Origin: a virus
Taxonomy: Duplodnaviria > Heunggongvirae > Uroviricota > Caudoviricetes
Length of the DNA stretch: 64,000 nucleotides
Direction: 5' to 3' (one strand)
Virus record (IMG/VR): IMGVR_UViG_3300010368_000011
Location: 1 to 64,000 of that record
A program made the translations under genes and the position numbers. Below the pieces are notes generated by a model. It was given only the letters and a program-made list of their open reading frames with translations, had not been told where the DNA came from and ran no database searches. This document shows, in pieces, positions 1-61,029 of the stretch (positions are counted from its first letter, which is position 1; the number at the start of each line of letters is the position of its first letter).

Positions 1-3000
1 CCATGGAATCAGTGCAACCGTTGGGTCATATAATTGATTAGATATTTGATAAGCCGATAGCAACTTACCACTAATGGTGCTTCTTTTGTTTTTAACCCAA
101 AAATAATATCGACGTGACCCGTCGCTTTGGGTGACTTCTGTATATGAGGGGCTAGCCGCATTGAAAATGATCACATCATCTTCATCACCACTGTATTCAG
201 TCGGTGGTACGCGAGATTCAATCCATTCATATATATCAATGCTTCTGTTGGTTATTGTGATTATATTAGACAGTAACAATGCATTCGATAATATAGAAAC
301 AGTCTCAGGACCATTCAACAGAGTATAGGTAACGTCATTACCAGAAACCACATCAACCATACCACTGATACGTTGACCATCTCTGGTTTCTACCGTTATG
401 GATTGATTGACTACTATATTATGACCAGCCTCAACTACAGATTTGATACTGATAGTATTTGCAACTGCACTTGAACTGATTGCGTAACTCTTCAGCTTGC
501 CCCAGTTCTCGGATGATTCTTTTAAAGTGAGAGACTGATTTAAATAATCTTGGTATTCTCTGTTTGATGTGTTCCACCAAATGGTTCCAACTCTACTTGA
601 CGACCATTCATATCCTTCGTCCGTGGTTGCTACACCTTTGTTGTAATATGCTGGATCAAACGAGGTTTCGATATCGATCTGTGAATAGGCTATTGGCTCA
701 TGTAACCCGTTAATAGGATCGTAATGAAACATCTTCTTGTCTAATACTTCGCCTTCCAGTACAACTGCTCTGATATCATAATCGGGTGATGTCGCATTTC
801 CTTTGATTGGGAATTTGAAATTACCTTGGCGTGGTGGAACAATCCATTTGGCATGAGTTTGGGAACGATCATAATCACTGATCGTTACAACACCCGGTTC
901 ATTGGTTGACCCGAATATCACTGATTGGATTCTATTATTGAAATCGGTTTCAAGGATATTAAATCGAACTGGATTATCAAATGAGGTTTTACCAAATTCG
1001 CCCTCTTTCCATGCCCAACATTCGAGAATTTCCAACGGGATATTATTATTCTTAGAGATTGAAAAACCAGATACAGCACGACGAGTGCCTTTCTCTCTAA
1101 TAGAATTCTTGTGAAATTCTAAAGACATAACCTCATTGATATTCATTTCTCTGGCATAATCGCGATAGTACCAACCATAAAGATTGAAGGCTTGATCACG
1201 GAATTTTGGATCAGAAACAGGGTCCAACATATCGTAATAACGAATGAAGTCCTTGGTGCTCTTCTCAAAGTTCGGAACAAGCTTATCACCAGACGCAATA
1301 TATCCGGGTGTATCCAAACGGCCTGCCCACTCTTTTGTTCTTAGTGATTTGATTTCAAGTCTTTTCTGACGCAAACCAGTAAATGGATCATAAACAAGAT
1401 CATTGAATCTAGTTCTATTAGAAATGAACACAGCGTGTTGTATATCTACAATAGTCGCTCTAAGACCGAAAATCAAATGAGGAGATTTAACCGATATGTC
1501 ACCATCAAAACGATACGTGTCAAAATCAGTTATAGGCATTCCAGCAATATCAAGTAGACTGTATCCACCATATACTAACTTCTGAATATTATTCATATGA
1601 CCAAAAGTCGATTGCAGATTCAACGAATTACCAGACGCAACATCCACAAAGATTTGCCCAGTAGTAGCCGTCTGTGACCACACCGCAAATCGTTTGGCAA
1701 CATCTATCCAATCATCATTCTCATAAACCCAACCATTGTCAGTATAATTTCTTCCGTAATCTACAATGAATTCAACAACTTCTTGTGGAGAATTGAATTG
1801 ATGACCATACTGATAGTCGATAATGTTATTCGTTCCAGTCTCATAGTAGAAGTAATCGGTTTCCCCAATTGAGAATTTGCGAGAACGTGTACTAGGATTA
1901 GTATATGTTGTAGTCAATTGAGCAGTTAGTTGTTGACCGGTTGTTATATTTGGATCAATGATCTGGAAACTAGTTGGGCTTAATATATTAATATATTGAT
2001 CTTTGACTTTGAATCCATCAACAAGAACTGAGAATTTTGCTAAATCGTTCGTTCCGCCTAATTTGAATTTGGTCAAGGTGTATGTATCTATACCAGTCTG
2101 AACAGTATAGGTTTCGTTAAACGTAGTTCTTCCAGCAAGAGATGGACGAGCACCATAATTGATTCTAAAGAACGAGTTCGTATAATCATAACCATACACT
2201 TGGTATTTTGAACCACGTTTGAGAATTTGAATACCACTATGGAATTTATTCTCAATCGGTAATCCTTTGTGTAATGTTAACTGCACATCTTCAAAAGGGA
2301 TTTCCACACCGGATGAAGTTTTGATTACTGTTGCAGCTTTATCAATAAAACCATTGGTTTTCCAACCGAGTGATACATTGGATTGTCGAATCGTGTCAGC
2401 AAACTCTTTCGAATTTATTCTCGACATATTTAAATTCTCGGCAACCCATGCGTTAATGCCCGGATTGGAATAATTAATGTCTTCCGAATGAATCTTTAAA
2501 TCATCGATCTTCGGACGGCGAAGAGTTCCATCATCAATCTTAATAGGTCCACCAAACAAATTGGTATCCATACCAATAGTGAATGAATAATCAGACCATA
2601 GGAATTCCACATATCTACCCGGCTTCATCAGATAACCAGCTAGTGCATATGCAAATGGCCCAAGATGTGAATTATGGAATGAGTTCTCAATCGGACTACA
2701 ATCACCATACTTCCAATTTTGTTCAGGGGAAATTAATTGATCAAGACTTACTACACCGGCTGTCACTGGATCAATTAGATCACCATTAACATCAACAGGG
2801 ATGGGTGCTGTGGCGCTCAATAGGAATTTAGTAGGAATGGTGACCCCTTCGGCAGCTATCAACGTGCCGGTCTTCAGATCAGCCCACATGGCATTAGCAG
2901 AACCATATCTCCCGTTGCCATCAGCATCCGTGCTGGTCACCGTATAAGCATCATCCCACCAAGCGGGCTTTATCGTGAAACCTAATATTTCCCATGGGGC

Positions 3001-5742
3001 AACATGTGGACGATCAGTACCATATACGCGTTTGTATATTCCGGTCCAATGACCCTCAAAACCAGCCGAAGTATAATTCCATGTCCACTTGTTAGCCTCG
3101 GAATAACCATCATTGGTTACAGGGTCTAACCCCTGATCGACATACCATCTTTCAAACTCACGACGAATCACTGTGGTATAATCTGAAGACTGGTAATCAA
3201 ATACTCCTGATCTATCAAAAGCCTTTAATTCAAAAATGTCGAAACCATTGAAGGTATGCTTTGTGTCATCGGTAAGATTTTTGACAATATCACTGGCCAC
3301 AGCTTTTTTAGTAACCCATGCGGAATTACTATAAGTCGCATACATCCCATGAGTTTTAGAATACACTCTATCACCTTCAGTTGGTGACAAGGCAGTATAA
3401 TCATTTACAATATTATCAACATCAGGCACATTGGTAATAATGGTTTTATTACCAATGTGATTCTTCAATGAGAATTGATGACCATCCAAAAATGCACTCT
3501 CGGCCACTGATTCTAATTTACGTTTCGCTGGTACAGAAGCAAAGAACCTATTTTCAAGATTAATGATGACATCATCGCGCTCATCATTATATGCTAACAT
3601 CACACTTCCATCATGTTTCAATATATAAGTTATTGAATTTGTTGTGAATTTCCGTGGAGTATAAGCGGGTGCGGCACCAGTTCTGGCGGCTGAAGGGGGA
3701 ATGAGTATTGGTGATACGGCTGCTGTCGTTTCGTTGACATACGTTCCCATCCCGGCATTCCAAAATGGACTCTCTTCAGTAGAGAAGAGAATGTTTTGAG
3801 TTAATACCTTGTCCACCATCTCTGTGGCAGTCAGTCCGTTCAATGTCCCTTGTGGAGTTGAATAACTACCCGCATCCCAAATGGTGCTCAATCGACGAAC
3901 AAACCGTTTCATGAATCGGTTATATTCAAATGACATATTACGAATGGCTTCTGCCAGATCATAATCATCGTTCTGAATTAATGATAAAGGAATCAATAAT
4001 GATCCTTCAGTATCGATAATCGTTGCACCAGAAACCGGATCACGACTGGTCCAACGATAATTATTATTCCCCAATGGAATACCATCAGCATTTGTGTCTA
4101 AAATATTTCTATAATGGTTGATTATATTACTTCTGCTGATACTAGTGATAATATCATGGTTCGGGTTATTACTCAGATTTAGAGGAACACCTTTCTGGGT
4201 TTGATCATACACGAGCGGTGTGGTTGATCGGTTCCATACTGAATGAAGCTGACCGGTCCATGTGTCCTTGAAAAACCTATAACCCAGAACAGATATATTA
4301 TTTTTAGTATAAACAGTACTTTCAAGAGTAAGGTCAAATATAATTTCACCAGTACTATCATATGTCAACGGAAATCCAAGAACAGTATCATCGGAATTAG
4401 TTCTTGTTTGTTTGTATTCAAATAACGAGTTACCGTTATAAGTGTCAACAAATGTTGATGCCTTGCTAATACCACCGTTATCAACCATGTATATTTCATA
4501 TTTCGGTTGAACATTATTCAATCCAAAAATCTTATAAGATGCAAGTGCATCAGAAATATCAGTTGTTTCGATTGAACTCCAATATTCAAGTAATGGTCTT
4601 TTTGATTGCTTACCATTGTATTCTGTTTTATCGATTGCACTTAAATCTTCAAAGTGAACCCACCAGTTTTCTTTCTGCCATGGATCATCATTAACGGTGA
4701 AATCAATTGCAGCATAACGATATACAGGATCATTACCGGTTGGAACACCAATCGCGGTCATGCTAGCTATATCATTATCAGAATCCAGAGTATCAAAATA
4801 TGGAATGGTTGAATAAACCAATGGTGCCCAACCCTCATTTGTATAAAGAAGGAATTTACGGGATGCTGGTGATCGAGAATCTTCCCAGATCATGCCTTCG
4901 ACCGGATTATCAGGTTCACGATTAGAAATAACCGGAACTTTTGATAACCACCGGCCTGCTTCACCACTATAATGATATATCACTGGTCGTTGATAGTTCT
5001 TACCGGTGCGAGCGATGTAAAGATATGTACCAGCCGCAATATCAGATGGAACAGCGTCTTCTGATGCGTATGGCGCGATATTAACCACCTGCCATGCAGT
5101 TCCATCCCATTGGTAAATTGTACGCTGTGCGTCTGTACAATCCTCGCGAAGATCGCCTGTGAGAGTACCGGTCGGTTCATAGCTAGCCAACGGTGCTAAT
5201 CGATCACTGGAATCCAGAATTACTGCTTTCTTGGTGAATGTTCCATTTGCTTCAACATAATGAAGAACCGTCTGCGATGCTGTTGGTTCTTTTACAATGT
5301 ATTCGCCAGTATCGTCCGCTGTTCCATCTCCGGTCCAGAAGTATTTGGAAAAATTAACCCATTTGTCAATATTAATTGGTGGAGTGAAAGAAAAGTAATC
5401 ACATTCAAATAATCTATTTTCATCACTGGTCAATCCACCATTGGCCAAGATGTGACCAATCAAGTCAGCATAAAAAGCACCATTGGCGACTGAACCATCT
5501 TTATTATATGAAACGACACATGGAGATAATTGAAATCGATCATCCAACGGGTTACTATTGGTGATAAATGGTGATCTATCTTTAGTGGATTGGGAGATAT
5601 CGGTGTCGTCACCGATTTGTCCTTCAATGCGTTCAAACGCTTCTGGTTCAAACGCTAAATCATCTGTAGCTCCTAGGAGACGCTTGTTTACATCTGTCTG
5701 GAATACTTTTGGTAGCGACGAAAATACTCTACGATCTTTCAT
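1..5742 (-). CDS. giant virion structural protein (tail-fibre/adhesin-like), >1900 aa, C-terminus runs off window start
   Basis: single uninterrupted minus-strand frame from ATG at 5742-5740 (first ATG after in-frame TAA, AAGG RBS) to position 1; no competing complete ORF >70 aa in 5.7 kb; aromatic YW/WW repeat motifs like those in the sheath gene at 50321. Confidence 0.7.
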   Translation of the reverse strand, partial: MKDRRVFSSLPKVFQTDVNKRLLGATDDLAFEPEAFERIEGQIGDDTDISQSTKDRSPFITNSNPLDDRFQLSPCVVSYNKDGSVANGAFYADLIGHILANGGLTSDENRLFECDYFSFTPPINIDKWVNFSKYFWTGDGTADDTGEYIVKEPTASQTVLHYVEANGTFTKKAVILDSSDRLAPLASYEPTGTLTGDLREDCTDAQRTIYQWDGTAWQVVNIAPYASEDAVPSDIAAGTYLYIARTGKNYQRPVIYHYSGEAGRWLSKVPVISNREPDNPVEGMIWEDSRSPASRKFLLYTNEGWAPLVYSTIPYFDTLDSDNDIASMTAIGVPTGNDPVYRYAAIDFTVNDDPWQKENWWVHFEDLSAIDKTEYNGKQSKRPLLEYWSSIETTDISDALASYKIFGLNNVQPKYEIYMVDNGGISKASTFVDTYNGNSLFEYKQTRTNSDDTVLGFPLTYDSTGEIIFDLTLESTVYTKNNISVLGYRFFKDTWTGQLHSVWNRSTTPLVYDQTQKGVPLNLSNNPNHDIITSISRSNIINHYRNILDTNADGIPLGNNNYRWTSRDPVSGATIIDTEGSLLIPLSLIQNDDYDLAEAIRNMSFEYNRFMKRFVRRLSTIWDAGSYSTPQGTLNGLTATEMVDKVLTQNILFSTEESPFWNAGMGTYVNETTAAVSPILIPPSAARTGAAPAYTPRKFTTNSITYILKHDGSVMLAYNDERDDVIINLENRFFASVPAKRKLESVAESAFLDGHQFSLKNHIGNKTIITNVPDVDNIVNDYTALSPTEGDRVYSKTHGMYATYSNSAWVTKKAVASDIVKNLTDDTKHTFNGFDIFELKAFDRSGVFDYQSSDYTTVIRREFERWYVDQGLDPVTNDGYSEANKWTWNYTSAGFEGHWTGIYKRVYGTDRPHVAPWEILGFTIKPAWWDDAYTVTSTDADGNGRYGSANAMWADLKTGTLIAAEGVTIPTKFLLSATAPIPVDVNGDLIDPVTAGVVSLDQLISPEQNWKYGDCSPIENSFHNSHLGPFAYALAGYLMKPGRYVEFLWSDYSFTIGMDTNLFGGPIKIDDGTLRRPKIDDLKIHSEDINYSNPGINAWVAENLNMSRINSKEFADTIRQSNVSLGWKTNGFIDKAATVIKTSSGVEIPFEDVQLTLHKGLPIENKFHSGIQILKRGSKYQVYGYDYTNSFFRINYGARPSLAGRTTFNETYTVQTGIDTYTLTKFKLGGTNDLAKFSVLVDGFKVKDQYINILSPTSFQIIDPNITTGQQLTAQLTTTYTNPSTRSRKFSIGETDYFYYETGTNNIIDYQYGHQFNSPQEVVEFIVDYGRNYTDNGWVYENDDWIDVAKRFAVWSQTATTGQIFVDVASGNSLNLQSTFGHMNNIQKLVYGGYSLLDIAGMPITDFDTYRFDGDISVKSPHLIFGLRATIVDIQHAVFISNRTRFNDLVYDPFTGLRQKRLEIKSLRTKEWAGRLDTPGYIASGDKLVPNFEKSTKDFIRYYDMLDPVSDPKFRDQAFNLYGWYYRDYAREMNINEVMSLEFHKNSIREKGTRRAVSGFSISKNNNIPLEILECWAWKEGEFGKTSFDNPVRFNILETDFNNRIQSVIFGSTNEPGVVTISDYDRSQTHAKWIVPPRQGNFKFPIKGNATSPDYDIRAVVLEGEVLDKKMFHYDPINGLHEPIAYSQIDIETSFDPAYYNKGVATTDEGYEWSSSRVGTIWWNTSNREYQDYLNQSLTLKESSENWGKLKSYAISSSAVANTISIKSVVEAGHNIVVNQSITVETRDGQRISGMVDVVSGNDVTYTLLNGPETVSILSNALLLSNIITITNRSIDIYEWIESRVPPTEYSGDEDDVIIFNAASPSYTEVTQSDGSRRYYFWVKNKRSTISGKLLSAYQISNQLYDPTVALIPW

Positions 5743-5777
5743 TGGATATGATACAGCCTTTTGATTTATTTATTAGG

Positions 5778-6047
5778 CTAATCGTCTTCAATTAATGAAA
5801 TTCGCTGCCTTATTCTAATCTTAGACGATTTGTCTTCAATATGACCAATATCAAAGAAATATAATCTTTGTTCCACCTGTTGAACAAAGGCTTCTAATTG
5901 AGTCATCATAGTTGAATGTGGCAGAGAAGCCGCCATCGACATCTTTTCGTAAAGAGTGTCCAGCAGCTTCTCTGTTTCTTGTTTGTTGCACTGAGATAAT
6001 GTCTTATACTCAGTGTCAGATATTTTTAAAGATGGTTCCATAGTCAT
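5778..6047 (-). CDS. hypothetical protein (89 aa), upstream of giant fibre gene
   Basis: ORF track; same strand as structural operon. Confidence 0.4.
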   Translation of the reverse strand: MTMEPSLKISDTEYKTLSQCNKQETEKLLDTLYEKMSMAASLPHSTMMTQLEAFVQQVEQRLYFFDIGHIEDKSSKIRIRQRISLIEDD

Positions 6048-43679: not shown

Positions 43680-44700
43680 TACATATCCGCGAAGCCTGCT
43701 AAATATGTTCTCAACGAATGAGTGCTCTCGGTTTTACCGCCGCTGAGAAAAATAAAAAAAAGTGCAGTGACAGGGTTTACAGATCGAAAAAACCTGTTAT
43801 ATATACATCTTCATGACGCGGGGCCGCAAGCCGCCACGTTGTTACTAGAGGCCACGATGCTTCTAGATATATGTTATAATGAATGGGCGGTATAGCGTCC
43901 ATTAAGAATAAGTCGAGTAATCGACCCAAAGCAGGGGTTACATCTCTGCACCACCGTAAGGATGGCTCATCTATACAAGTCCAAGTCTGCCGGTAACGGT
44001 GTGTCTTCACAAAGGCACGAAGCAGTAAAAACAGGTTAATGAGATTCGAGGCCAACTGGTTAGAATCGTTCAAGGGTAGCTCCTTTGAGTAATTAACACA
44101 GCAACTGTTTGAATGTGAAGACTAATGGATAGTGATCTAGTATCTTCTTCGGGAGATATTATAGTCCGAACCTTAGCGGGACAGGGCGGGTCGCAATGTT
44201 AAAGGCATGGAGTTGGTGATGTAATAGTCATCAAATACGTGTTCTTGAAACATGGTTTAGTAGTCTTAGCGGGCGAAAAACAGGAGGCGTGTTGTATTTT
44301 GACTCTAACAAGGGTCGAAGCAACTGGATTAGCACGTCTTAGTAATTGCAAAGAAACCACTCCAAGGTAACAAAAAGCAAAGTCTAATCCATCGTTGTAT
44401 GAAAGGTGCTTAAAGCCTTACCCCTCGGGGAATAAGGTGCGCCGGAGGTCGCAAGCCGAAGGTGTTTGTTGGAGAAAGTTTCATAGCCATTTAGCGATGG
44501 TTAACTGTTGTAAAAGGCAGATGGGACAGAAACCAATGAGTAGTACAGCGTGATAGATGAAACGCCACATCTTAAAAAAGGCAGCACTGGTGGATACAGG
44601 AAGACCTTAACCGGCTCCTGTGGATGTGAAATTAACAAGCGGGTGCAACTGCTTGGTACGATTTGAAGGCCACTATTTTTGCCGCTAGTCTCACGGCGAA
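43680..44700. ncRNA. candidate large structured RNA (about 1 kb, ORF-free, GC-enriched, many GNRA/UUCG-type hairpins); strand undetermined
   Basis: no plausible ORF on either strand over ~1 kb in an otherwise gene-dense phage; local GC visibly higher than flanks; ends at repeated 34-nt hairpin 44703..44736. Confidence 0.4.
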
Positions 44701-44702
44701 CT

Positions 44703-44736
44703 AATGAAAGCCCTCGGTTAATAGCCGGGGGCTTTC
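44703..44736. repeat. 34-nt hairpin element, copy 2 (identical to 27144..27177); abuts the stop codon of 44735..45634
   Basis: exact repeat; 12-bp stem. Confidence 0.6.
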
Positions 44737-45634
44737 ACTGTTTGGGTTCATCATATTTCTTTCTGATGTATTCAATTATGTCAGCGGATTTTCGCAACCC
44801 TAATTTCTTACACAACACCGTGAACTCGTTGGACTTCATGTTCTTCTTGCGAGAATTATGAATGGTGGAATCAAGTGATCTAACATGATCACCAACGTGC
44901 CACGGATGATCTAGTATATTATTCTTAATTCGGCGCGCATCTTTCGATAGGGTGACATGTAATGGCGCTGATAATAATTCCACATATGGCTTCAGATAAT
45001 TCACAGTGATGCCATGATACCTATCACTCGTGTCTACCGATGAATCACTCTTAAGCCGTGATAGATCAGTCAGCGCTTTAGCTTTATTGCGACTATTATA
45101 TGCATCAGCATTATCATAAACCGACACGGGTATATTATTCTTCTTCGCGGCGATGATGATCTTACGTATTTTGGATTTCTGTTTTTCGGAACCGGTGTCC
45201 TGATTCTTGTCCATCTTGTCCAAGTTTGCGTACAGGTGAATTTCGGTTATATATTTTACGGCGTTAGGAATAGCAGGCTTGTCTGAGAAGATACGATCTT
45301 CTGATTCGAACTTATCAGGCCGCGTTGTGCGAAATGATGGACCCCAATAATCAATAGGCTTTCCGGTAAAACCGTCTGCCATCAGTTTTTGTCCATCCAG
45401 CACAACATATCCAGCACTACTGGCATGGCGAATATCACGCTCATAAAAGCCGGATAGGGTTCTGGTAGTTGATAGATAAAAGGGTTCACCGCCAGAAAAA
45501 TCATTTTCCGAACTGGTTCCCATATCACTGGTGAGAATGAATTGATTATCATCAAGGATCGATAGCATACTGAACACATCGGTTCGGTGGAACAATATAG
45601 AACTGATGCCTTCTAATAGTTGGTTAATTTTCAT
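44735..45634 (-). CDS. hypothetical protein (299 aa), member of MKI(N/Q)QL(L/F)E tandem paralogue family
   Basis: ORF track; N-terminus shared with 45631..46017 and 46022..46501. Confidence 0.55.
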   Translation of the reverse strand: MKINQLLEGISSILFHRTDVFSMLSILDDNQFILTSDMGTSSENDFSGGEPFYLSTTRTLSGFYERDIRHASSAGYVVLDGQKLMADGFTGKPIDYWGPSFRTTRPDKFESEDRIFSDKPAIPNAVKYITEIHLYANLDKMDKNQDTGSEKQKSKIRKIIIAAKKNNIPVSVYDNADAYNSRNKAKALTDLSRLKSDSSVDTSDRYHGITVNYLKPYVELLSAPLHVTLSKDARRIKNNILDHPWHVGDHVRSLDSTIHNSRKKNMKSNEFTVLCKKLGLRKSADIIEYIRKKYDEPKQ

Positions 45635-46017
45635 GGATCACCATGAATATCAATACAGGTGACGCCCGGACCATAAGCACGAACAATGGTTGGTGTATGT
45701 CGGGCAAGATCGGTCATTGTTTCGTGAACTTCACCATCATCAACATCCTGTTGTCTACAGGCTAAGCAATCTGTATATGCATACAGTGAATATCCACATA
45801 ATGGTATGCTACGAGAATATGTGATGCCTTGTTCTTGTTTGAATTCATCGTGAATATAGATGTATGGATTGAAAACGTAGAAATTACCTTCTTGATCAAC
45901 CACGGCTCTGGCAAAGTGTTCAACTCGTTTACTGAGAAATGATTGAAGCCGCCTTGAAGAAGGGTTCTTCATGAATGCGTCATTTTCAAATAATTCGAAG
46001 AGTTGTTGGATTTTCAT
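45631..46017 (-). CDS. hypothetical protein (128 aa), MKIQQLFE family
   Basis: ORF track. Confidence 0.5.
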   Translation of the reverse strand: MKIQQLFELFENDAFMKNPSSRRLQSFLSKRVEHFARAVVDQEGNFYVFNPYIYIHDEFKQEQGITYSRSIPLCGYSLYAYTDCLACRQQDVDDGEVHETMTDLARHTPTIVRAYGPGVTCIDIHGDP

Positions 46018-46021
46018 AATT

Positions 46022-46501
46022 CTAATCTTTGATATTTAGTTTAGAGTAAGATAATATTTTATCCATCTGATCAATGATATCAAATGATTCATCTTCTTCT
46101 AATGCAATGATGCCTTCTGAAATCCGTTTCCGTTCCAAATCGATCCTTATTATGTATTGGTCTATATTTTCTATTACTTCCGTTGCGATAACTTCTTCAG
46201 CTTCATCGTAACTCGCGTGGCCGTTAATTCTATCATTGTATTGAATTATCTTATATCTATTTCTTAATTTATTGGTGTCAAATACAAAGATACCACCCAA
46301 CCCGTATTCTTCATGATTATGAGTGAACCTTTCTGCTACCTTATAGTCTCTGGTTGTCCTAATACCGTGTGGCTCGCCCGGAAGGCCGAAATATTCCCCT
46401 TCGCTCATCGTGTTTGTTAATATAATATTGCAGGTAGAATAAAAATCAGTACCATGGAACAATGGTTGTCTGTTATTTTCGAAGAGTTGCTGGATTTTCA
46501 T
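46022..46501 (-). CDS. hypothetical protein (159 aa), MKIQQLFE family
   Basis: ORF track. Confidence 0.5.
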   Translation of the reverse strand: MKIQQLFENNRQPLFHGTDFYSTCNIILTNTMSEGEYFGLPGEPHGIRTTRDYKVAERFTHNHEEYGLGGIFVFDTNKLRNRYKIIQYNDRINGHASYDEAEEVIATEVIENIDQYIIRIDLERKRISEGIIALEEDESFDIIDQMDKILSYSKLNIKD

Positions 46502-46878
46502 ACAGTGAATTGACTTTTATCAAATGGTATAACAAAAACAAAGCTGCCTATATACTCTCCATCTTCTTGTGCCATGCTAGTCATTCTAACATATATACCG
46601 GTTTTGTTTTTGTTGACGAAGTATACATTACCGATTGGAATATCTTTGTCTTCCAGTTCCGACACAGCATCATAGAACCGGACATCTTTCTTAGCTACAA
46701 ACGTTTTATTATCTTTATGAAGGATAACTATCCCTAATTCCATTTTGATCTTTTGTACAATATTCAGCGGGACTGCTTTGTTGTTTTCAATAAAAACAAA
46801 AGGCCGCTCTGTGCTTTCCTTGATCAAATCTAAGAGTTTCATGATAATATCCTGTTGTACCGTTTTATTTATCTCCAA
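46498..46878 (-). CDS. hypothetical protein (126 aa)
   Basis: ORF track. Confidence 0.5.
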   Translation of the reverse strand: MEINKTVQQDIIMKLLDLIKESTERPFVFIENNKAVPLNIVQKIKMELGIVILHKDNKTFVAKKDVRFYDAVSELEDKDIPIGNVYFVNKNKTGIYVRMTSMAQEDGEYIGSFVFVIPFDKSQFTV

Positions 46879-47537
46879 AGCTCATCAAACATACCACGCA
46901 TGATTCGTTTACAACTGGTGGACTTGTTAGACTGATGATCGTTAACCTGATCGTCTTGAAAACGATACGTGCGAATCTTATCGGCTCTCATACCAGAACC
47001 AATCTTTTCGCGCCGATCCTGATTCGTACCGTCCATTGAATCGCTATGAGACAACTGATCCAATTTTTCACACAATTCTTTCATGGCGGTGGTTTCGTTG
47101 GATGTTCGACTCTTACCTTGAATGGTTTGAACGATGCCGGTTGGAAGATGATAAAGCCGTAAGCAATTTTGATGCTTGTTGCGATTCTGTCCACCATTCC
47201 CTGTACCGCTGAACCATTCCTTATAGAAGTGCTCTGTATCGCGTAAGGCGTACCGTGGGTCAGCTTCGGCCTTATCAATGACGGCAACGGTCACGGTAGA
47301 CGTATGAACGCGTCCACGCTTCTCTGTGGGAGGAACACGTTGAATACGATGGCCACCTGATTCTTGATTTAATTTTTTGTGTTTGTCGGGTAGTACGAAA
47401 CTGATCTGATTATCAGACACATGTTTCTCGAAACTTCAACCGAACCGATTGAAAAGCTTAACGTATGCGGATGCCATGTCTGTCATGAATAGGCGGGCAT
47501 CTTCGCCACCTTCACCGGGTCTAATTTCTAGTTTCAT
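46869..47537 (-). CDS. class I peptide-chain release-factor homologue lacking domain 1 (PrfH/RF1-like: PxT-type PPT motif, GGQ motif), interrupted by in-frame TGA at 47438..47436
   Basis: AAGGAGG RBS + ATG 47537; N-part MKLEIRPGEGGEDARLFMTDMASAYVKLFNRFG, TGA, then same frame SFEKHV..SGGHRIQRVPPTEKRGRVHTSTVTVAV...FSGTGNGGQNRNKHQNCLRLYHLPTGIV...DKIRTYRF; colinear with RF1 domains 2-4; the TGA aligns with the conserved Trp of RF1 (YSRYAEARRW). Confidence 0.7.
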
Positions 47538-47565
47538 TGAAACCTCCTTGATAGTATTTAGGGTA

Positions 47566-47594
47566 TTGACATACATATTATAGGTGTTTATATT
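47566..47594 (+). promoter_or_regulatory. sigma70-like promoter (TTGACA-17-TATATT)
   Basis: hexamers and spacing; divergent from RF-like gene. Confidence 0.45.
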
Positions 47595-47635
47595 CATCAA
47601 GTCACACCAATCTATCTATCTATCGGAGATACCTC

Positions 47636-50320: not shown

Positions 50321-52678
50321 ATGGCTACACTAAGTTCGCCTAACGTTCAAGTTAGCATCAATAACCAATCGCAATATTCGGAAACGTATCCAACTACGGT
50401 TCCGCTCATTGTTTTAGCATCACGGGCTGGTAAAACCAACCCTTCTGGAACAGGTATTGCGGCTGGAACGACTGAAAGTAATGTGGTCCGTTCGGTCACA
50501 TCGCAAAGAGAAGTGTTACAGCTTCTTGGAAATCCCACGTTTGTCACATCGGGTGGAAATCCCGTTCATGGACATGAATGTAATGAGTATGGTGTCTTTG
50601 CCCTCTGGAATTTGATGGCAACCTCATCGTTGGCTTATTATGTTCGTGCGGATATCGATCTAGATCAACTGCTCCCATCAACTACGGAACCAGTAAATCC
50701 ACCCGTGGATGGAACTTATTGGATTGATAGTGATGCAGTAGTCGGTGGTTTCTATCGTCGAAATGCTGCTAACTCTGCGTGGGAAGCTCTTACGTCAGCA
50801 GTATACACAACCACACCGGGTTCTGGTGACGGAGTTGAAGGTAATATTGCTCTCGATTATTCGACTGCTAACGGAACCGTCAAAGTTAAAACAACTGCAA
50901 CAGTTTGGGCTGATATCGGTGCAACTGATCTATCTTCAACTGCAATCGACTCTCGTACTGGTACGACTGCTGATATTTGGTTGTCCGAAACAGCTCCATT
51001 AGGTGCTGGTGCGAATGATTACTGGTGGAAAACAAATGCTGCATCTGGTGGTTATAACCTGAAGCTTTCGAAATATCGTGCAAGCGATGCTACATGGGTT
51101 GAAGTTATTCCTACTCGTTCAACAATTGAACCAACCGATAAAAGCACAACTTCAATTTGGGAAGACCTGTCTTCTCTAACTGATGATGGTTATCATCCGT
51201 TGAAGGTTGGTAACGGTAGTGCCTTTGTTGCACTAACAACTGTTATCCAAGCAGCTGCACCAACAACTGCGGCGACTGATGGTGATTATTGGTACTCTGA
51301 TGACATCACGGATTTCGGATTGTACAAAGAAGTATCTGATGAGTGGATTCCTATCACTACTGTAGGAACAGAAACCCCAACAGCAGTTCAAAAGGTTATT
51401 AGTGCTTCTGCACCGACAACTCCATCAACTGGTGCATTCTGGGTTGATGTTTCTGGTGATAATCTTGATAATTTCCCAGTAATCAAGCGTTATTCTGGCG
51501 CTGTATGGGAAGACATCACGTCTTCGGTTGATATGTCGGGTTCTTATACAGCACCAACATTGGTTGCTAATGGATCGTTGTGGTTAAACCTTGATGATGT
51601 AAGCACCAAGTGTACGGTCAAAGTCTATGACTCAACCTATCTTCCGGTAACTATTGCTTCCGGTGTTAAAGATACATGGGTTTCGGCTGATGGTCACTGG
51701 AAACCAATTGCAGGTTCACGCTTCTTGCGTAAGGCTCAACGTTATATGGTTTCTTCGAAGCTTCAGGCTGCATTAGCTAATGTTGATGAACTGAAATCAG
51801 AAGCTATCTTGTATCAGCTTATGGCTGCACCGGGATATCCTGAACTATATGACGAGATGGTGAATGTTTCAACTGCGATCAATGAGCGTGCTCATGTTAT
51901 TGCTGATGTTCCATTCAATATGATCCCGTCTGGTGTCGCTGCTGGCAAAGAAGTTACTGTAGCAGATTGGAAATCAAATACTGTTGGTGCTTCTGCAACT
52001 GGTGAAGAAGGTTTTGCTTCCTCGTCTAATGCAATCGCTTCGATGTATTATCCACATGCCTTGATGTCAAATGTCGATGGGGTCGATATCCTTGCACCTG
52101 CTTCTGCATATGTCATTCCGATGCTTGTTAGAACAGATAATAATTCTGGTCCATGGCAAGCGGCTATCGGTTATTCAAACGGTGTTATCAATAAGGTTTC
52201 ATCTGTTGGATACTTGACTGATGCCGGTGCTTACAAATTATTGAACATCACTGATGGTCATGCTGATATTCTATATAATAACCAAGTCAATATGGTTAAG
52301 AATATCTATCGTGTTGGTCTTCGTAATATGGGTAACAAAACAGTTTACGGTGGTTCTGAATTGACCAATCGTGTTAACGTTTCTCGCCTTGTTTCGAAAA
52401 TCCGTTACGAAATCCGTCAACTACTGATGCCTTATCTCGGTCAACCCAATCTGTCCGGTACATGGTCATCTGTTCGTAATACGGCCAATCGTTACCTAGC
52501 GGGTCTTTCTGCTGCAAATGCCTTAGAAGATTATGGTGTTCGCTGTGATGAAGAGATAAATACCGCAGAAAGAAGAGCAAGAAATGAACTATGGGTTGAG
52601 GTCGCTATTATTCCGGTAACAGCAACTGAATTCGTTTATGTTGAACTTCGTATTGATGAACCGGGTACAACTATTTAA
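50321..52678 (+). CDS. tail sheath protein (785 aa) with inserted YW-repeat domains
   Basis: C-terminal region (…YNNQVNMVKNIYRVGLRNMGNKTVYGGSELTNRVNVSRLV…RNELWVEVAIIPVTATEFVYVELRI) matches conserved sheath C-terminal domain; strong terminator follows. Confidence 0.75.
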   Translation: MATLSSPNVQVSINNQSQYSETYPTTVPLIVLASRAGKTNPSGTGIAAGTTESNVVRSVTSQREVLQLLGNPTFVTSGGNPVHGHECNEYGVFALWNLMATSSLAYYVRADIDLDQLLPSTTEPVNPPVDGTYWIDSDAVVGGFYRRNAANSAWEALTSAVYTTTPGSGDGVEGNIALDYSTANGTVKVKTTATVWADIGATDLSSTAIDSRTGTTADIWLSETAPLGAGANDYWWKTNAASGGYNLKLSKYRASDATWVEVIPTRSTIEPTDKSTTSIWEDLSSLTDDGYHPLKVGNGSAFVALTTVIQAAAPTTAATDGDYWYSDDITDFGLYKEVSDEWIPITTVGTETPTAVQKVISASAPTTPSTGAFWVDVSGDNLDNFPVIKRYSGAVWEDITSSVDMSGSYTAPTLVANGSLWLNLDDVSTKCTVKVYDSTYLPVTIASGVKDTWVSADGHWKPIAGSRFLRKAQRYMVSSKLQAALANVDELKSEAILYQLMAAPGYPELYDEMVNVSTAINERAHVIADVPFNMIPSGVAAGKEVTVADWKSNTVGASATGEEGFASSSNAIASMYYPHALMSNVDGVDILAPASAYVIPMLVRTDNNSGPWQAAIGYSNGVINKVSSVGYLTDAGAYKLLNITDGHADILYNNQVNMVKNIYRVGLRNMGNKTVYGGSELTNRVNVSRLVSKIRYEIRQLLMPYLGQPNLSGTWSSVRNTANRYLAGLSAANALEDYGVRCDEEINTAERRARNELWVEVAIIPVTATEFVYVELRIDEPGTTI

Positions 52679-52756: not shown

Positions 52757-54499
52757 ATGAACGAACTTAAAGAAAAAATCGAAAAAACCTTTAAGGTCAA
52801 TGGTCGTATCGTTTCTCGACGCCTGAATGATACATATATACAGACCAATAATCTTGAAGATTTGGTTAATACAATACACTCGACAACTTCATTTGTAAGT
52901 GAATGTACATTAGGCACACGTGTCAATATTATACTTAATGATATCAAACAAATTCCCGCCTGCAAGTTATCGGGTTGTGACAACTGTGTTCCTATAGCAG
53001 AAGCGGGTAACAATCTATTTCAAACATATTGTAGTAAAGAATGTTCTATGAAGAGTGCTTCTGAAGCTGCTCGTCTTGCCCTTAAAACTAAATATGGGGT
53101 TGATAATCCAATATATATTCCCGGTGTTAGGGAAAAAATCATGGAAACGAATAAAGCCAACAACGGTGGGGTGCATTTGTTTCAAACGGACGAGTATAAG
53201 AAACATATAAAAGCCCATTATCAACACGTCTACGGGGTGGATTTTCATACACAGGCCGAACAAATCAAAGATAAAATAAAGGTAACTGTTAGACAAAGCT
53301 ATGGTGTGGATAATCCATCACAGTCAGAAGCGGTAAAGGCATTAAAAATACAAACATCTATTGGTAATTACGGAATACCGAATCCGTCCTCCGATGAAGG
53401 TGTTAAAGCAAAACGCCAAGAAACCATGTTGTCCCGGTACAGTGTCCCATATTATTCACAATCGGATGATTACAAAAAACGTAATATAAAACCCGGAACC
53501 TATCTAGGATGGCATGATAAAGAGGACGAGATTAGACAACTGATAGATGAAGGTATTACTGGTGAACAGCTTAGTGCATACTTGGGTTTCGCTAATACCA
53601 GTAATTTATACAATACTGTTCTGAAGGAATTCAACATAAGTCCAGAAATGCTAAACCGAAACACAACAGGTCGATCTGTTCTGGAAGACAAAATAACTAC
53701 CATGATTTCCGAAATGTATGATGGTGAAATTATTCAATCATATAAATTACCTAATAACAAAGAGATAGATATATTTCTTCCCGCGTTACAAATAGGTATT
53801 GAAATAAATGGTTCCTATTGGCATTCCCATTTATTCGCTCCTAAGTCACAACATTTAGATAAAACGGAATATTGCGAGAGCATTGGTATTCAACTTATAC
53901 AGATATATGAACATGAAATTAATAATAAATCATCAAAGGTGATTCAATTAATAACTGGTTTGGTTAATGATAGAAAAACTATAGGTGCCAGACAAACAAC
54001 TTTTATGCGAATTGATAACTCAATGGCTGCAACCTTCTTTGATACCTATCATTTCGACGGGAAGCGTGGCGCATCGGAATGTTATGGGTTATTTCATAAC
54101 GATGAGTTGGTTATGTGTGCATCGTTTACAAAACATAAACAAGGAATGGAACTTATTAGATTAGCATCTAGTATAAGAGTGGTTGGTGGATTGTCCAAAA
54201 TATTAAAAAGAACTGGTTATACTAGTGTAGTATCATTTGCTAATCGATCTAGAACAAATAGAAATAATAATATATACTTAAAGTCCGGGTTTGTAGAAAC
54301 AAGAACTACTGCGCCTAATTATGTCTATATCTATGGAAAATATGTTAAATCTAGATACCAAGCCATGAAACATAAGTTGCCTGAATTGTTGGGTGATATG
54401 TTTGATAGTATGAAAAGCGAGAAACAGAATATGCTAGATAACAAATGGTTACAAGTATATGATTCTGGACAGATTTTCTATTCATGGAATAATGCTTGA
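52757..54499 (+). CDS. homing-endonuclease-like protein (580 aa): Zn-ribbon, tandem YGVDNP repeats, C-terminal Vsr/PD-(D/E)XK-like nuclease motif
   Basis: repeats KYGVDNP / SYGVDNP / NYGIPNP / RYSVPYY; C-terminal DIFLPALQIGIEINGSYWHS resembles Vsr/DUF559-type nucleases; inserted between sheath and downstream genes. Confidence 0.5.
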   Translation: MNELKEKIEKTFKVNGRIVSRRLNDTYIQTNNLEDLVNTIHSTTSFVSECTLGTRVNIILNDIKQIPACKLSGCDNCVPIAEAGNNLFQTYCSKECSMKSASEAARLALKTKYGVDNPIYIPGVREKIMETNKANNGGVHLFQTDEYKKHIKAHYQHVYGVDFHTQAEQIKDKIKVTVRQSYGVDNPSQSEAVKALKIQTSIGNYGIPNPSSDEGVKAKRQETMLSRYSVPYYSQSDDYKKRNIKPGTYLGWHDKEDEIRQLIDEGITGEQLSAYLGFANTSNLYNTVLKEFNISPEMLNRNTTGRSVLEDKITTMISEMYDGEIIQSYKLPNNKEIDIFLPALQIGIEINGSYWHSHLFAPKSQHLDKTEYCESIGIQLIQIYEHEINNKSSKVIQLITGLVNDRKTIGARQTTFMRIDNSMAATFFDTYHFDGKRGASECYGLFHNDELVMCASFTKHKQGMELIRLASSIRVVGGLSKILKRTGYTSVVSFANRSRTNRNNNIYLKSGFVETRTTAPNYVYIYGKYVKSRYQAMKHKLPELLGDMFDSMKSEKQNMLDNKWLQVYDSGQIFYSWNNA

Positions 54500-55965: not shown

Positions 55966-56040
55966 ATGGGTGTAGCTCAGTCTGGCTAGAGCATCGGCCT
56001 CCAAACCCGAGTGTCGGGGGTTCGAATCCCTCCACCCATG
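55966..56040 (+). tRNA. tRNA-Trp(CCA) (one C:C mismatch closing the anticodon stem)
   Basis: acceptor ATGGGTG/CACCCAT, D-arm GCTCAGTCTGGCTAGAGC, loop CTCCAAA, T-arm GGGGGTTCGAATCCCTC, G73-CCA. Confidence 0.7.
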
Positions 56041-56063
56041 CCAATTCCTTCAAGGAAAACATT

Positions 56064-60957: not shown

Positions 60958-61029
60958 TAGTCGGTGAGAGATTCGAACTCCCGACATCCTCGGTGTAAAC
61001 GAGGCGCTCTCCCGCTGAGCTAACCGACC
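60958..61029 (-). tRNA. tRNA-Val(UAC)
   Basis: acceptor GGTCGGT/ACCGACT, anticodon stem CCTCG/CGAGG loop TTTACAC, T-arm GGGAGTTCGAATCTCTC, A73, CCA encoded. Confidence 0.75.

Follow-up and report, generated by a model that had tools for sequence, protein, structure and literature searches.

A phage gene for a domain-1-less RF1-type release factor with a conserved early in-frame UGA, a candidate read-through sensor of host termination

The 64,000-nucleotide stretch of viral DNA analysed here (positions 1 to 64,000 of the IMG/VR record IMGVR_UViG_3300010368_000011, hereafter the window) carries on its minus strand, at 46869..47537, a gene for a class I release factor (RF) of the RF1 type that has no domain 1 and is interrupted by an in-frame TGA at codon 34. 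The stop codon is conserved in a large family of related genes, both halves of the gene are under purifying selection, the phages use the standard genetic code, and many relatives carry a prfB-type +1 frameshift cassette at nearly the same position. On balance, read-through of the UGA probably gates synthesis of the phage RF1-type factor inversely to the activity of RF2 in the host.

Structure of the gene and its predicted product

The reading frame opens with an ATG at 47537..47535, runs through 33 sense codons (MKLEIRPGEGGEDARLFMTDMASAYVKLFNRFG) to the TGA at 47438..47436, goes on beyond it without a change of frame through 188 codons and ends with a TAA at 46871..46869, giving 222 sense positions (33 codons, the UGA and 188 codons) followed by the TAA; all features of the gene given below are on the minus strand. 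The N-terminal segment (codons 1–33, 47439..47537) covers positions 104–131 of the Pfam PCRF profile and constitutes strand beta1 and helix alpha5 of domain 2, including the EGGxD tip of the helix, which in RF1 contacts the stop codon. The recoding site itself (codon 34, 47436..47438) stands between a GGT (Gly) codon and an A at 47435, and the C-terminal segment (codons 35–222, 46872..47435) supplies the remainder of domain 2 and then domains 3 and 4, with a PPT motif at 47333..47325 in domain 2 and GGQ at 47195..47187 (residues 115–117) in domain 3. A Shine-Dalgarno sequence, AAGGAGG, can be read at 47543..47549, 5 nt upstream of the ATG, and because it implies strong initiation, expression should be limited at the UGA and not at the start of translation. 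The 98-nt divergent intergenic region contains a sigma-70-like promoter, GTGACT-17 nt-TATAAT (47577..47605, 10/12 matches), but the total of promoter-like sites in this region is not above that in shuffled controls and the site is a candidate only.

For the homology tests the two segments were joined into a 222-residue product with Trp placed at codon 34. Residues 3–84 match Pfam PCRF with an E-value of 1.6e-19 over profile positions 104–194 of 194, i.e. the last 91 positions only, and Pfam RF-1 is matched with an E-value of 1.4e-17. The NCBIfam prfA model gives an E-value of 7e-53 and 179.9 bits, below its equivalog cut-off of 400, and the prfB model gives 91 bits. The prfA match is confined to profile positions 108–334 of 347, and domain 1, which has about 105 residues in RF1, is therefore absent, the first strand of domain 2 forming the start of the protein. 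Of the relatives with a solved structure, RF1 of Thermotoga maritima (PDB 1rq0, residues 90–316, E-value 4e-40) gives the best match, and the TGA of the window gene aligns with the Trp of ...RKGWNLEV in that protein. The motifs EIRPGEGGEDARLF, GGHRIQRVPPTE, GGQ and DKIRTYRF are each found in the joined product, and IQRVPPTEKRGRVHTS aligns to VQRVPVTE..GRIHTS of RF1 (Gln, PxT and His-Thr, reading bases 2 and 3), the elements of this kind in the joined product being Q-R-V-P-P-T and H-T. An AlphaFold2 model of the family member P0007 (predicted local distance difference test score 89.9) compared by Foldseek with ribosome-bound RF1 has template modelling scores of 0.85–0.89. PrfH, a bacterial paralogue that also lacks domain 1, was considered as the identity of the protein and rejected: the score is 30.1 bits on the prfH model (cut-off 166.65) versus about 180 on prfA, the match to PrfH in the PDB (E-value 3.5e-6) covers the GGQ domain only, and there is no RtcB-like neighbour.

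An initial annotation, made from the letters of the window and their open reading frames (ORFs), had described two minus-strand ORFs in one frame parted only by a TGA, and had read their joined product as an RF1-type phage factor of domains 2–4 with a PxT-type motif, GGQ and DKIRTYRF but without domain 1, in which the UGA takes the place of an RF1 Trp. The sequence and its translation agree with this description, the prfA, PCRF, RF-1 and 1rq0 matches confirm the assignment, the prfA profile coordinates the missing domain and the 1rq0 alignment the Trp position, and in the profile searches that it proposed for the read-through product PCRF and RF-1 are matched and prfH only poorly.

Domain 1 is not needed for codon recognition or peptide release but is needed for the interaction with RF3, and release factors truncated in this way recycle slowly (PMC1586002). 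For the former reason the product should be a working RF3-independent factor of the RF1 type, terminating at UAA and UAG. Several changes are invariant and specific to the family, namely an EGGxD tip of helix alpha5 with Asp at a place where RF1 and RF2 both have Glu, GGQ-H-R-N where release factors have GGQ-x-V-N, and GSGMRGDKIRTYRFQD in place of GTGDRSE(K/R)IRTYNFPQ, and these substitutions might alter codon recognition or ribosome contacts.

Conservation of the stop codon and selection on both segments

The sequence is identical, including the TGA, in three independent assemblies (SRR5216425, ERZ27275010 and SRR14874072). A phage with a member of the family is also recorded as IMGVR_UViG_3300031957_002643. 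An alignment-based scan of IMG/VR found relatives on 289 viral contigs, and the 80 loci that were retrieved could be parsed into 57 unique sequences, all of which have exactly one in-frame stop, always TGA. When 70 unique genes with 46–69% protein identity were aligned by codons, TGA was found in the Trp column in 68 of them, and the remaining two have TGG in this column and their TGA further downstream, by two codons in L034 and by four in L087. The median ratio of non-synonymous to synonymous substitution rates (dN/dS) over 216 family pairs, with synonymous sites often saturated, is 0.115 in the N-terminal and 0.118 in the C-terminal segment. Both halves of the gene are translated and under purifying selection, which for the N-terminal segment follows from the dN/dS of about 0.115.

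The TGA-A sequence is the same in the sequenced isolates Thalassospira xianhensis MCCC 1A02616, Pararhizobium sp. BT-229 and Jiella sp. LLJ827. Proteins of 219–233 residues with a W, which look intact in the databases, were considered as possible TGG-bearing members and rejected, since all five that were examined (P0009, P0011, P0012, P0045 and P0048, from loci L084, L087 and L148–L150) contain a TGA at the DNA level, the protein having been predicted with genetic code 4. This gene alone appears to trigger the false assignment of an alternative code on short contigs.

The initial annotation had left room for a pseudogene and for a sequencing or assembly error, and had suggested that relatives be inspected for TGG at this codon. 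The first is rejected by the stop in 68 of 70 unique relatives and the dN/dS of about 0.11 on both sides, and the second is contradicted by the three assemblies; TGG turned up only in the two genes that have a TGA two or four codons on. The gene had also been called unusual, and here a correction is needed: it is not an isolated case but belongs to a large family where recoding is the rule.

Relatives with a prfB-type frameshift cassette

A scan with one genome per species returned 60 loci, and in 45 of these, mostly from Myxococcota, the N-terminal segment ends with a Leu codon and a stop and the remainder of the protein is encoded in the +1 frame. The complete genome of Minicystis rosea (DSM 24000; CP016211, with the gene at around 5.21 Mb) and Pyxidicoccus fallax DSM 14698 are among these frameshift-type loci, and a second IMG/VR scan with frameshift-type queries added 182 further viral contigs, many of 100–600 kb and mostly with the same arrangement. 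The slippery codon is CTT in all 85 unique frameshift-type genes, followed by TGA in 65, TAG in 18 and TAA in two; the base after the stop is C in 64, G in 15 and A in six, and never T, and in 52 of the 85 GGAGG precedes CTT at a distance of exactly 3 nt. Judged by its sequence, the GGAGG-N3-CTT-TGA-C element with its +1 shift is the prfB cassette (PMC12421855; PMC3711429). It is located one codon from the position of the window TGA, so that the Leu codon occupies the Trp position. The window gene itself shows none of the frameshift features of prfB, having frame 0 after the TGA, GGT before it and neither a Shine-Dalgarno-like element nor CUU, but it does have the early stop of prfB-type genes, a TGA at codon 34 that is kept in its relatives.

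Recoding is required in 185 of the 188 unique family genes, by an in-frame stop in 100 and by a +1 frameshift in 85, and three genes are uninterrupted. A neighbour-joining tree indicates at least nine switches between these states, although the tree is crude and the count approximate. What selection maintains is evidently a stop-codon checkpoint early in the gene, whichever mechanism serves it. The RF2-sensing switch analogous to prfB, which was among the readings offered in the initial annotation, is strongly backed by relatives in which the GGAGG-N3-CTT-TGA-C (+1) element lies within one codon of the same position.

No cultured phage with a member of this family was found among the GenBank phages by searches for near matches and at the protein level. 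The best matches were to uncultured megaphages of about 635 kb, L082 (LR745206.1 45079..51744) and L083 (LR756504.1 565646..572299), which have domain-1-less release-factor genes of about 40% identity that are unannotated in the published records. Their in-frame TGAs are located about 10 codons downstream of the window position, with a second stop in L082 at about 20, and the contexts are CAC-TGA-A, ATA-TGA-C and GAG-TGA-A.

Genetic code, tRNAs and passage of the stop codon

TGA terminates 26 of the 70 window ORFs that reach 100 codons and, in the flanks of the relatives, 238 of 756 ORFs (31%). Read with code 11, the long structural genes are intact, and no other gene with an in-frame TGA was seen in the 64-kb window or in the relatives' flanks. 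These phages use the standard code, and genome-wide recoding of TGA is ruled out by the stop usage and the intact long ORFs. The link to stop-codon-recoded phages that had been drawn in the initial annotation is consequently not upheld, since TGA serves as an ordinary stop both in the flanks and in the window, where a suppressor tRNA is also lacking.

The window contains 15 transfer RNA (tRNA) genes, one of them Trp-CCA, and a tRNA with a stop anticodon (UCA) was not found in its 64 kb by ARAGORN or Rfam. The phage tRNA-Trp (anticodon CCA, 55966..56043, plus strand) is a candidate near-cognate decoder of UGA, and the tRNA-Trp of the host would serve equally well. The anticodon stem of the phage tRNA-Trp is closed by a C31xC39 mismatch, at a place where a Watson-Crick pair is present in E. 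coli and in seven other tRNA-Trp genes of phages; an unusual tRNA-Trp acting as a dedicated UGA reader was considered and rejected, since the mismatch is not in the seven other phage genes and so not family-wide. Among about 84 loci a UCA-anticodon tRNA occurs only in the closest relative (the L001/L002 contig; L001 has 69% identity), 1.6 kb from the release-factor gene. It is 72 nt long, scores 55 bits with the Rfam tRNA model and is inserted in a GOLLD RNA of this syntenic relative (L001 7988..8447, minus strand). The window has a full-length GOLLD RNA at 44284..44697 (plus strand; Rfam RF02032, 168.6 bits with a gathering score of 150), 2.2 kb from the release-factor gene and with no tRNA insert, and another GOLLD RNA, in L070, has a tRNA-like insert with the anticodon AUU. 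In the arrays of 22–30 tRNA genes in L035, L044, L057 and L068, Trp-CCA is the only tRNA relevant to UGA.

RNAalifold predicted 0 conserved pairs from -30 to +100 in 27 diverse members, and neither a selenocysteine insertion sequence (SECIS) nor a stimulatory hairpin was found in this region; a selenoprotein or a conserved RNA element was rejected because no SECIS-like hairpin is present 3' of the UGA. No restart codon after the TGA is conserved in the family, the first possible start being 4 to 150 codons downstream. The nucleotides around the stop are constrained, with GGY (Gly) directly before it in 55 of the 57 unique sequences, and the base after it in 95 read-through-type genes is A in 65, C in 16, G in 14 and T in none; T follows 25% of the ordinary terminal TGAs in the same loci. 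In bacteria +4U is the context of strong termination (PMC5289835). UGA is the leaky stop that is read as Trp at low frequency, typically with a few percent read-through, which in prfB mutants increases from 6% to 19–54% (PMC7918605).

With a standard code, no RNA structure, no restart codon, a near-absence of UCA tRNAs and a conserved weak context, the simplest mechanism is near-cognate decoding of the UGA by tRNA-Trp in competition with RF2, and Trp is probably the residue inserted. Among the three readings of the initial annotation UGA read-through has the best support.

Proposed regulation and alternative explanations

According to the proposed mechanism, translation would start efficiently at AAGGAGG and the ribosome would then meet the UGA at codon 34 in the weak context Gly-UGA-A. 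Should the host RF2 bind first, only a 33-residue peptide would be made, and should a near-cognate Trp-tRNA (host or phage, CCA) win, Trp, the residue that many RF1s have there, would be placed at position 34 and the full factor be completed. A scarcity of free RF2 would in this way give a higher output of the phage RF1-type factor. Since UAA is read by both factors, the extra RF1 activity could unload RF2 at UAA when phage translation saturates termination, and the capacity of the infected cell for termination would in effect be under feedback control.

Several points weigh against such a sensor. The product is of the RF1 type and probably does not read UGA, which would make the circuit one of cross-regulation and not autoregulation, with a conjectural benefit, and Asp for Glu at the alpha5 tip together with GGQ-H-R-N makes even the predicted codon specificity uncertain. 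The frameshift-type relatives with TAG (18) or TAA (2) amount to about a fifth, so that the factor sensed would not always be RF2. The closest relative has its UCA tRNA 1.6 kb from the gene, and a dedicated suppressor is possible elsewhere in the genome of about 317 kb, of which 64 kb are covered here. Finally, a fixed throttle that senses nothing would give the same picture at the sequence level.

In this last explanation, which is unlikely, a low and constant UGA read-through keeps a potentially toxic RF3-independent factor scarce. It accounts for the same sequence facts as the sensor and is in line with a read-through that is usually a few percent (PMC7918605) and with the slow recycling of truncated release factors (PMC1586002). 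A weak ribosome-binding site would however suffice for this, yet the gene has a strong AAGGAGG, the stop has been retained, or has arisen anew close by, in 185 of 188 genes, and there have been at least nine exchanges with the prfB-type cassette, a device responsive to the level of release factor (PMC12421855). Slightly less likely still is a timer that depends on a suppressor, in which synthesis of the full-length factor has to wait for the expression of a phage UCA tRNA, in the manner of the code-change modules known from recoded phages. The location of the UCA tRNA of L001, in a GOLLD RNA 1.6 kb from the gene, speaks for it, and so does the pairing of RF1 with a suppressor tRNA in the recoded Jade phages (10.1101/2021.08.26.457843), but in the 64-kb window, where the GOLLD RNA is without a tRNA insert, a UCA tRNA was found neither by ARAGORN nor by Rfam, and only one relative (the L001/L002 contig) among about 84 loci has one, even arrays of 22–30 tRNAs being without it. 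The lack of other genes with an in-frame TGA and the common use of TGA as a terminator are also against a timer of this kind.

It is improbable that the gene is split, with a 33-residue peptide and a separately initiated C-terminal protein made by termination and reinitiation and assembling non-covalently. Gene callers do annotate a 183-residue ORF from a GTG at 47420 (P0001), but the first possible start in the relatives, anywhere from 4 to 150 codons past the TGA, is not conserved, the residues between the TGA and the later starts form conserved strands of the release-factor fold, and the frameshift-type relatives have no start codon near the junction in the downstream frame. Hardly credible, finally, are a pseudogene, a sequencing error, selenocysteine or a genome-wide code with TGA as Trp. 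A single TGG-to-TGA transition would create the stop, and gene callers chose code 4 for short contigs, but the TGA is identical in three assemblies and conserved up to saturated synonymous divergence with a dN/dS of about 0.11 on both sides, a SECIS-like hairpin is missing, and TGA ends about a third of the neighbouring ORFs, with code 11 leaving long structural genes intact.

Genomic surroundings

The window comes from the genome of a novel jumbo myovirus. A tail sheath gene is located at 50321..52678 and is directly followed by an ORF of 580 residues (52757..54499, plus strand) that resembles homing/HNH endonucleases (phrog_3339, E-value 2e-101). A structural protein is distantly related to those in Atu_ph07 and PA5oct, and no close relative was found among the GenBank phages. 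The only near-identical DNA that the window has in common with any GenBank phage is a tRNA-Val segment, 60963..61024, which is 95% identical to 336162..336223 of the Agrobacterium phage Atu_ph07. Downstream of the release-factor gene there are three consecutive minus-strand ORFs (46022..46501, 45631..46017 and 44735..45634) that all start with MKI(Q/N)QL(F/L)E and have no Pfam or PHROG match; from their sequences they look like a small paralogous family, and an LFH.TD motif is common to the first and the third. The ORFs neighbouring the release-factor gene have no Pfam match, and no RtcB-like partner gene is found nearby. At the beginning of the window, positions 1..6000, there are about 6 kb with no ORF above 70 codons on either strand, no Rfam match at the gathering threshold and no notable repeats.

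In the relatives the gene is usually found within phage tRNA arrays and sometimes beside a phage transfer-messenger RNA (tmRNA) gene, an arrangement that fits a translation-support module. The tmRNA beside the release-factor gene is of the permuted two-piece (alpha/beta-proteobacterial) type in L003 (3591..3965), L037 (1495..1814), L043 (5153..5564) and L048 (4679..5070), which hints at a module for termination and rescue and at proteobacterial hosts.

Implications

In a wider perspective, and more tentatively than for the window gene, it is quite possible that hundreds of phage lineages, many of them of the jumbo type with tRNA arrays and a tmRNA of their own, carry a private RF3-independent RF1 that is licensed only when the host does not terminate at an early stop codon serving as a test. 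Such phages would have a viral sensor for the termination capacity of the host, reinvented on at least nine occasions as UGA read-through or as a prfB-style +1 frameshift, and this would be the first prfB cassette outside RF2. If the proposal is correct, large phages would tune termination besides tRNA supply, and they would monitor and re-balance the activities of RF1 and RF2 during infection. Until now, control of release-factor genes by recoding has been the textbook peculiarity of prfB, with isolated parallels of the eukaryote type; the same logic would then be widespread in phages and applied to an RF1-type factor, with one principle extending from phages to giant viruses, and termination efficiency would have two natural read-outs at a single homologous site, read-through and +1 frameshift, the one exchangeable for the other. 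For annotation, the in-frame TGA means that gene callers truncate the gene or misassign code 4 to short contigs, and the protein databases are contaminated in this way. Sequenced isolates with versions of the gene (Thalassospira, Pararhizobium, Jiella, Pyxidicoccus and Minicystis) make experiments feasible.

Comparison with known systems

Among the known systems, the window gene appears closest in logic to prfB and closest in mechanism to the UGA-A read-through of Qbeta A1. The UGA of the Qbeta coat/A1 gene is likewise followed by A, is decoded at a few percent by ordinary tRNA-Trp and needs no downstream RNA structure, and its product is a minor capsid protein, extended at the C-terminus and made at a set ratio. 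The stop of the window gene, in contrast, is inside a single folded domain, so that only the read-through product can be functional.

As to the protein, PrfH (RF-H) is a bacterial class I paralogue that also consists of domains 2–4 only (PMC1586002), but the window protein keeps the PxT-type motif of RF1 and has no adjacent gene of the RtcB family, and PrfH genes are not recoded. An RF1 encoded by a phage and associated with phage tRNA genes is known from the Jade phages, which are TGA-recoded with a code-change module and have the RF1 gene itself in the standard code (10.1101/2021.08.26.457843); in the window, on the other hand, only the RF1-like gene has an in-frame TGA, and TGA is a stop. 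Surveys of huge phages list RF1 and RF2 and do not mention the early-stop feature (PMC7162821), none of the NCBIfam models represents the family, the only RF1 family in PHROGs is one of full-length proteins, and no description of this release-factor family was found in the full-text literature searched.

In theme the closest systems appear to be the release-factor gene of Mimivirus and plant eRF1-1. Expression of the class I release-factor gene of Mimivirus and Megavirus requires stop-codon read-through and, in Mimivirus, a frameshift (PMC3521657), and that of eRF1-1 requires stop-codon read-through (PMC5397192); both have been interpreted as autoregulation. These factors are of the eRF1/aRF1 type, read all three stops and sense themselves, whereas the phage factor is of the bacterial RF1 type and lacks domain 1.

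With prfB, finally, the window gene has in common that a class I release-factor gene contains an early in-frame UGA and that the outcome would be set by competition with a release factor, and its relatives have the same GGAGG, 3-nt spacer, CTT-TGA-C and +1 shift (PMC12421855, PMC3711429). The window gene differs in that it stays in frame, by read-through, where prfB uses a +1 frameshift, in that its site is in domain 2 and not in domain 1, and in that relatives also use TAG (18) and TAA (2). Its product, being of the RF1 type (PPT), should not read UGA, and where prfB regulates itself, the phage gene would be a case of cross-regulation.

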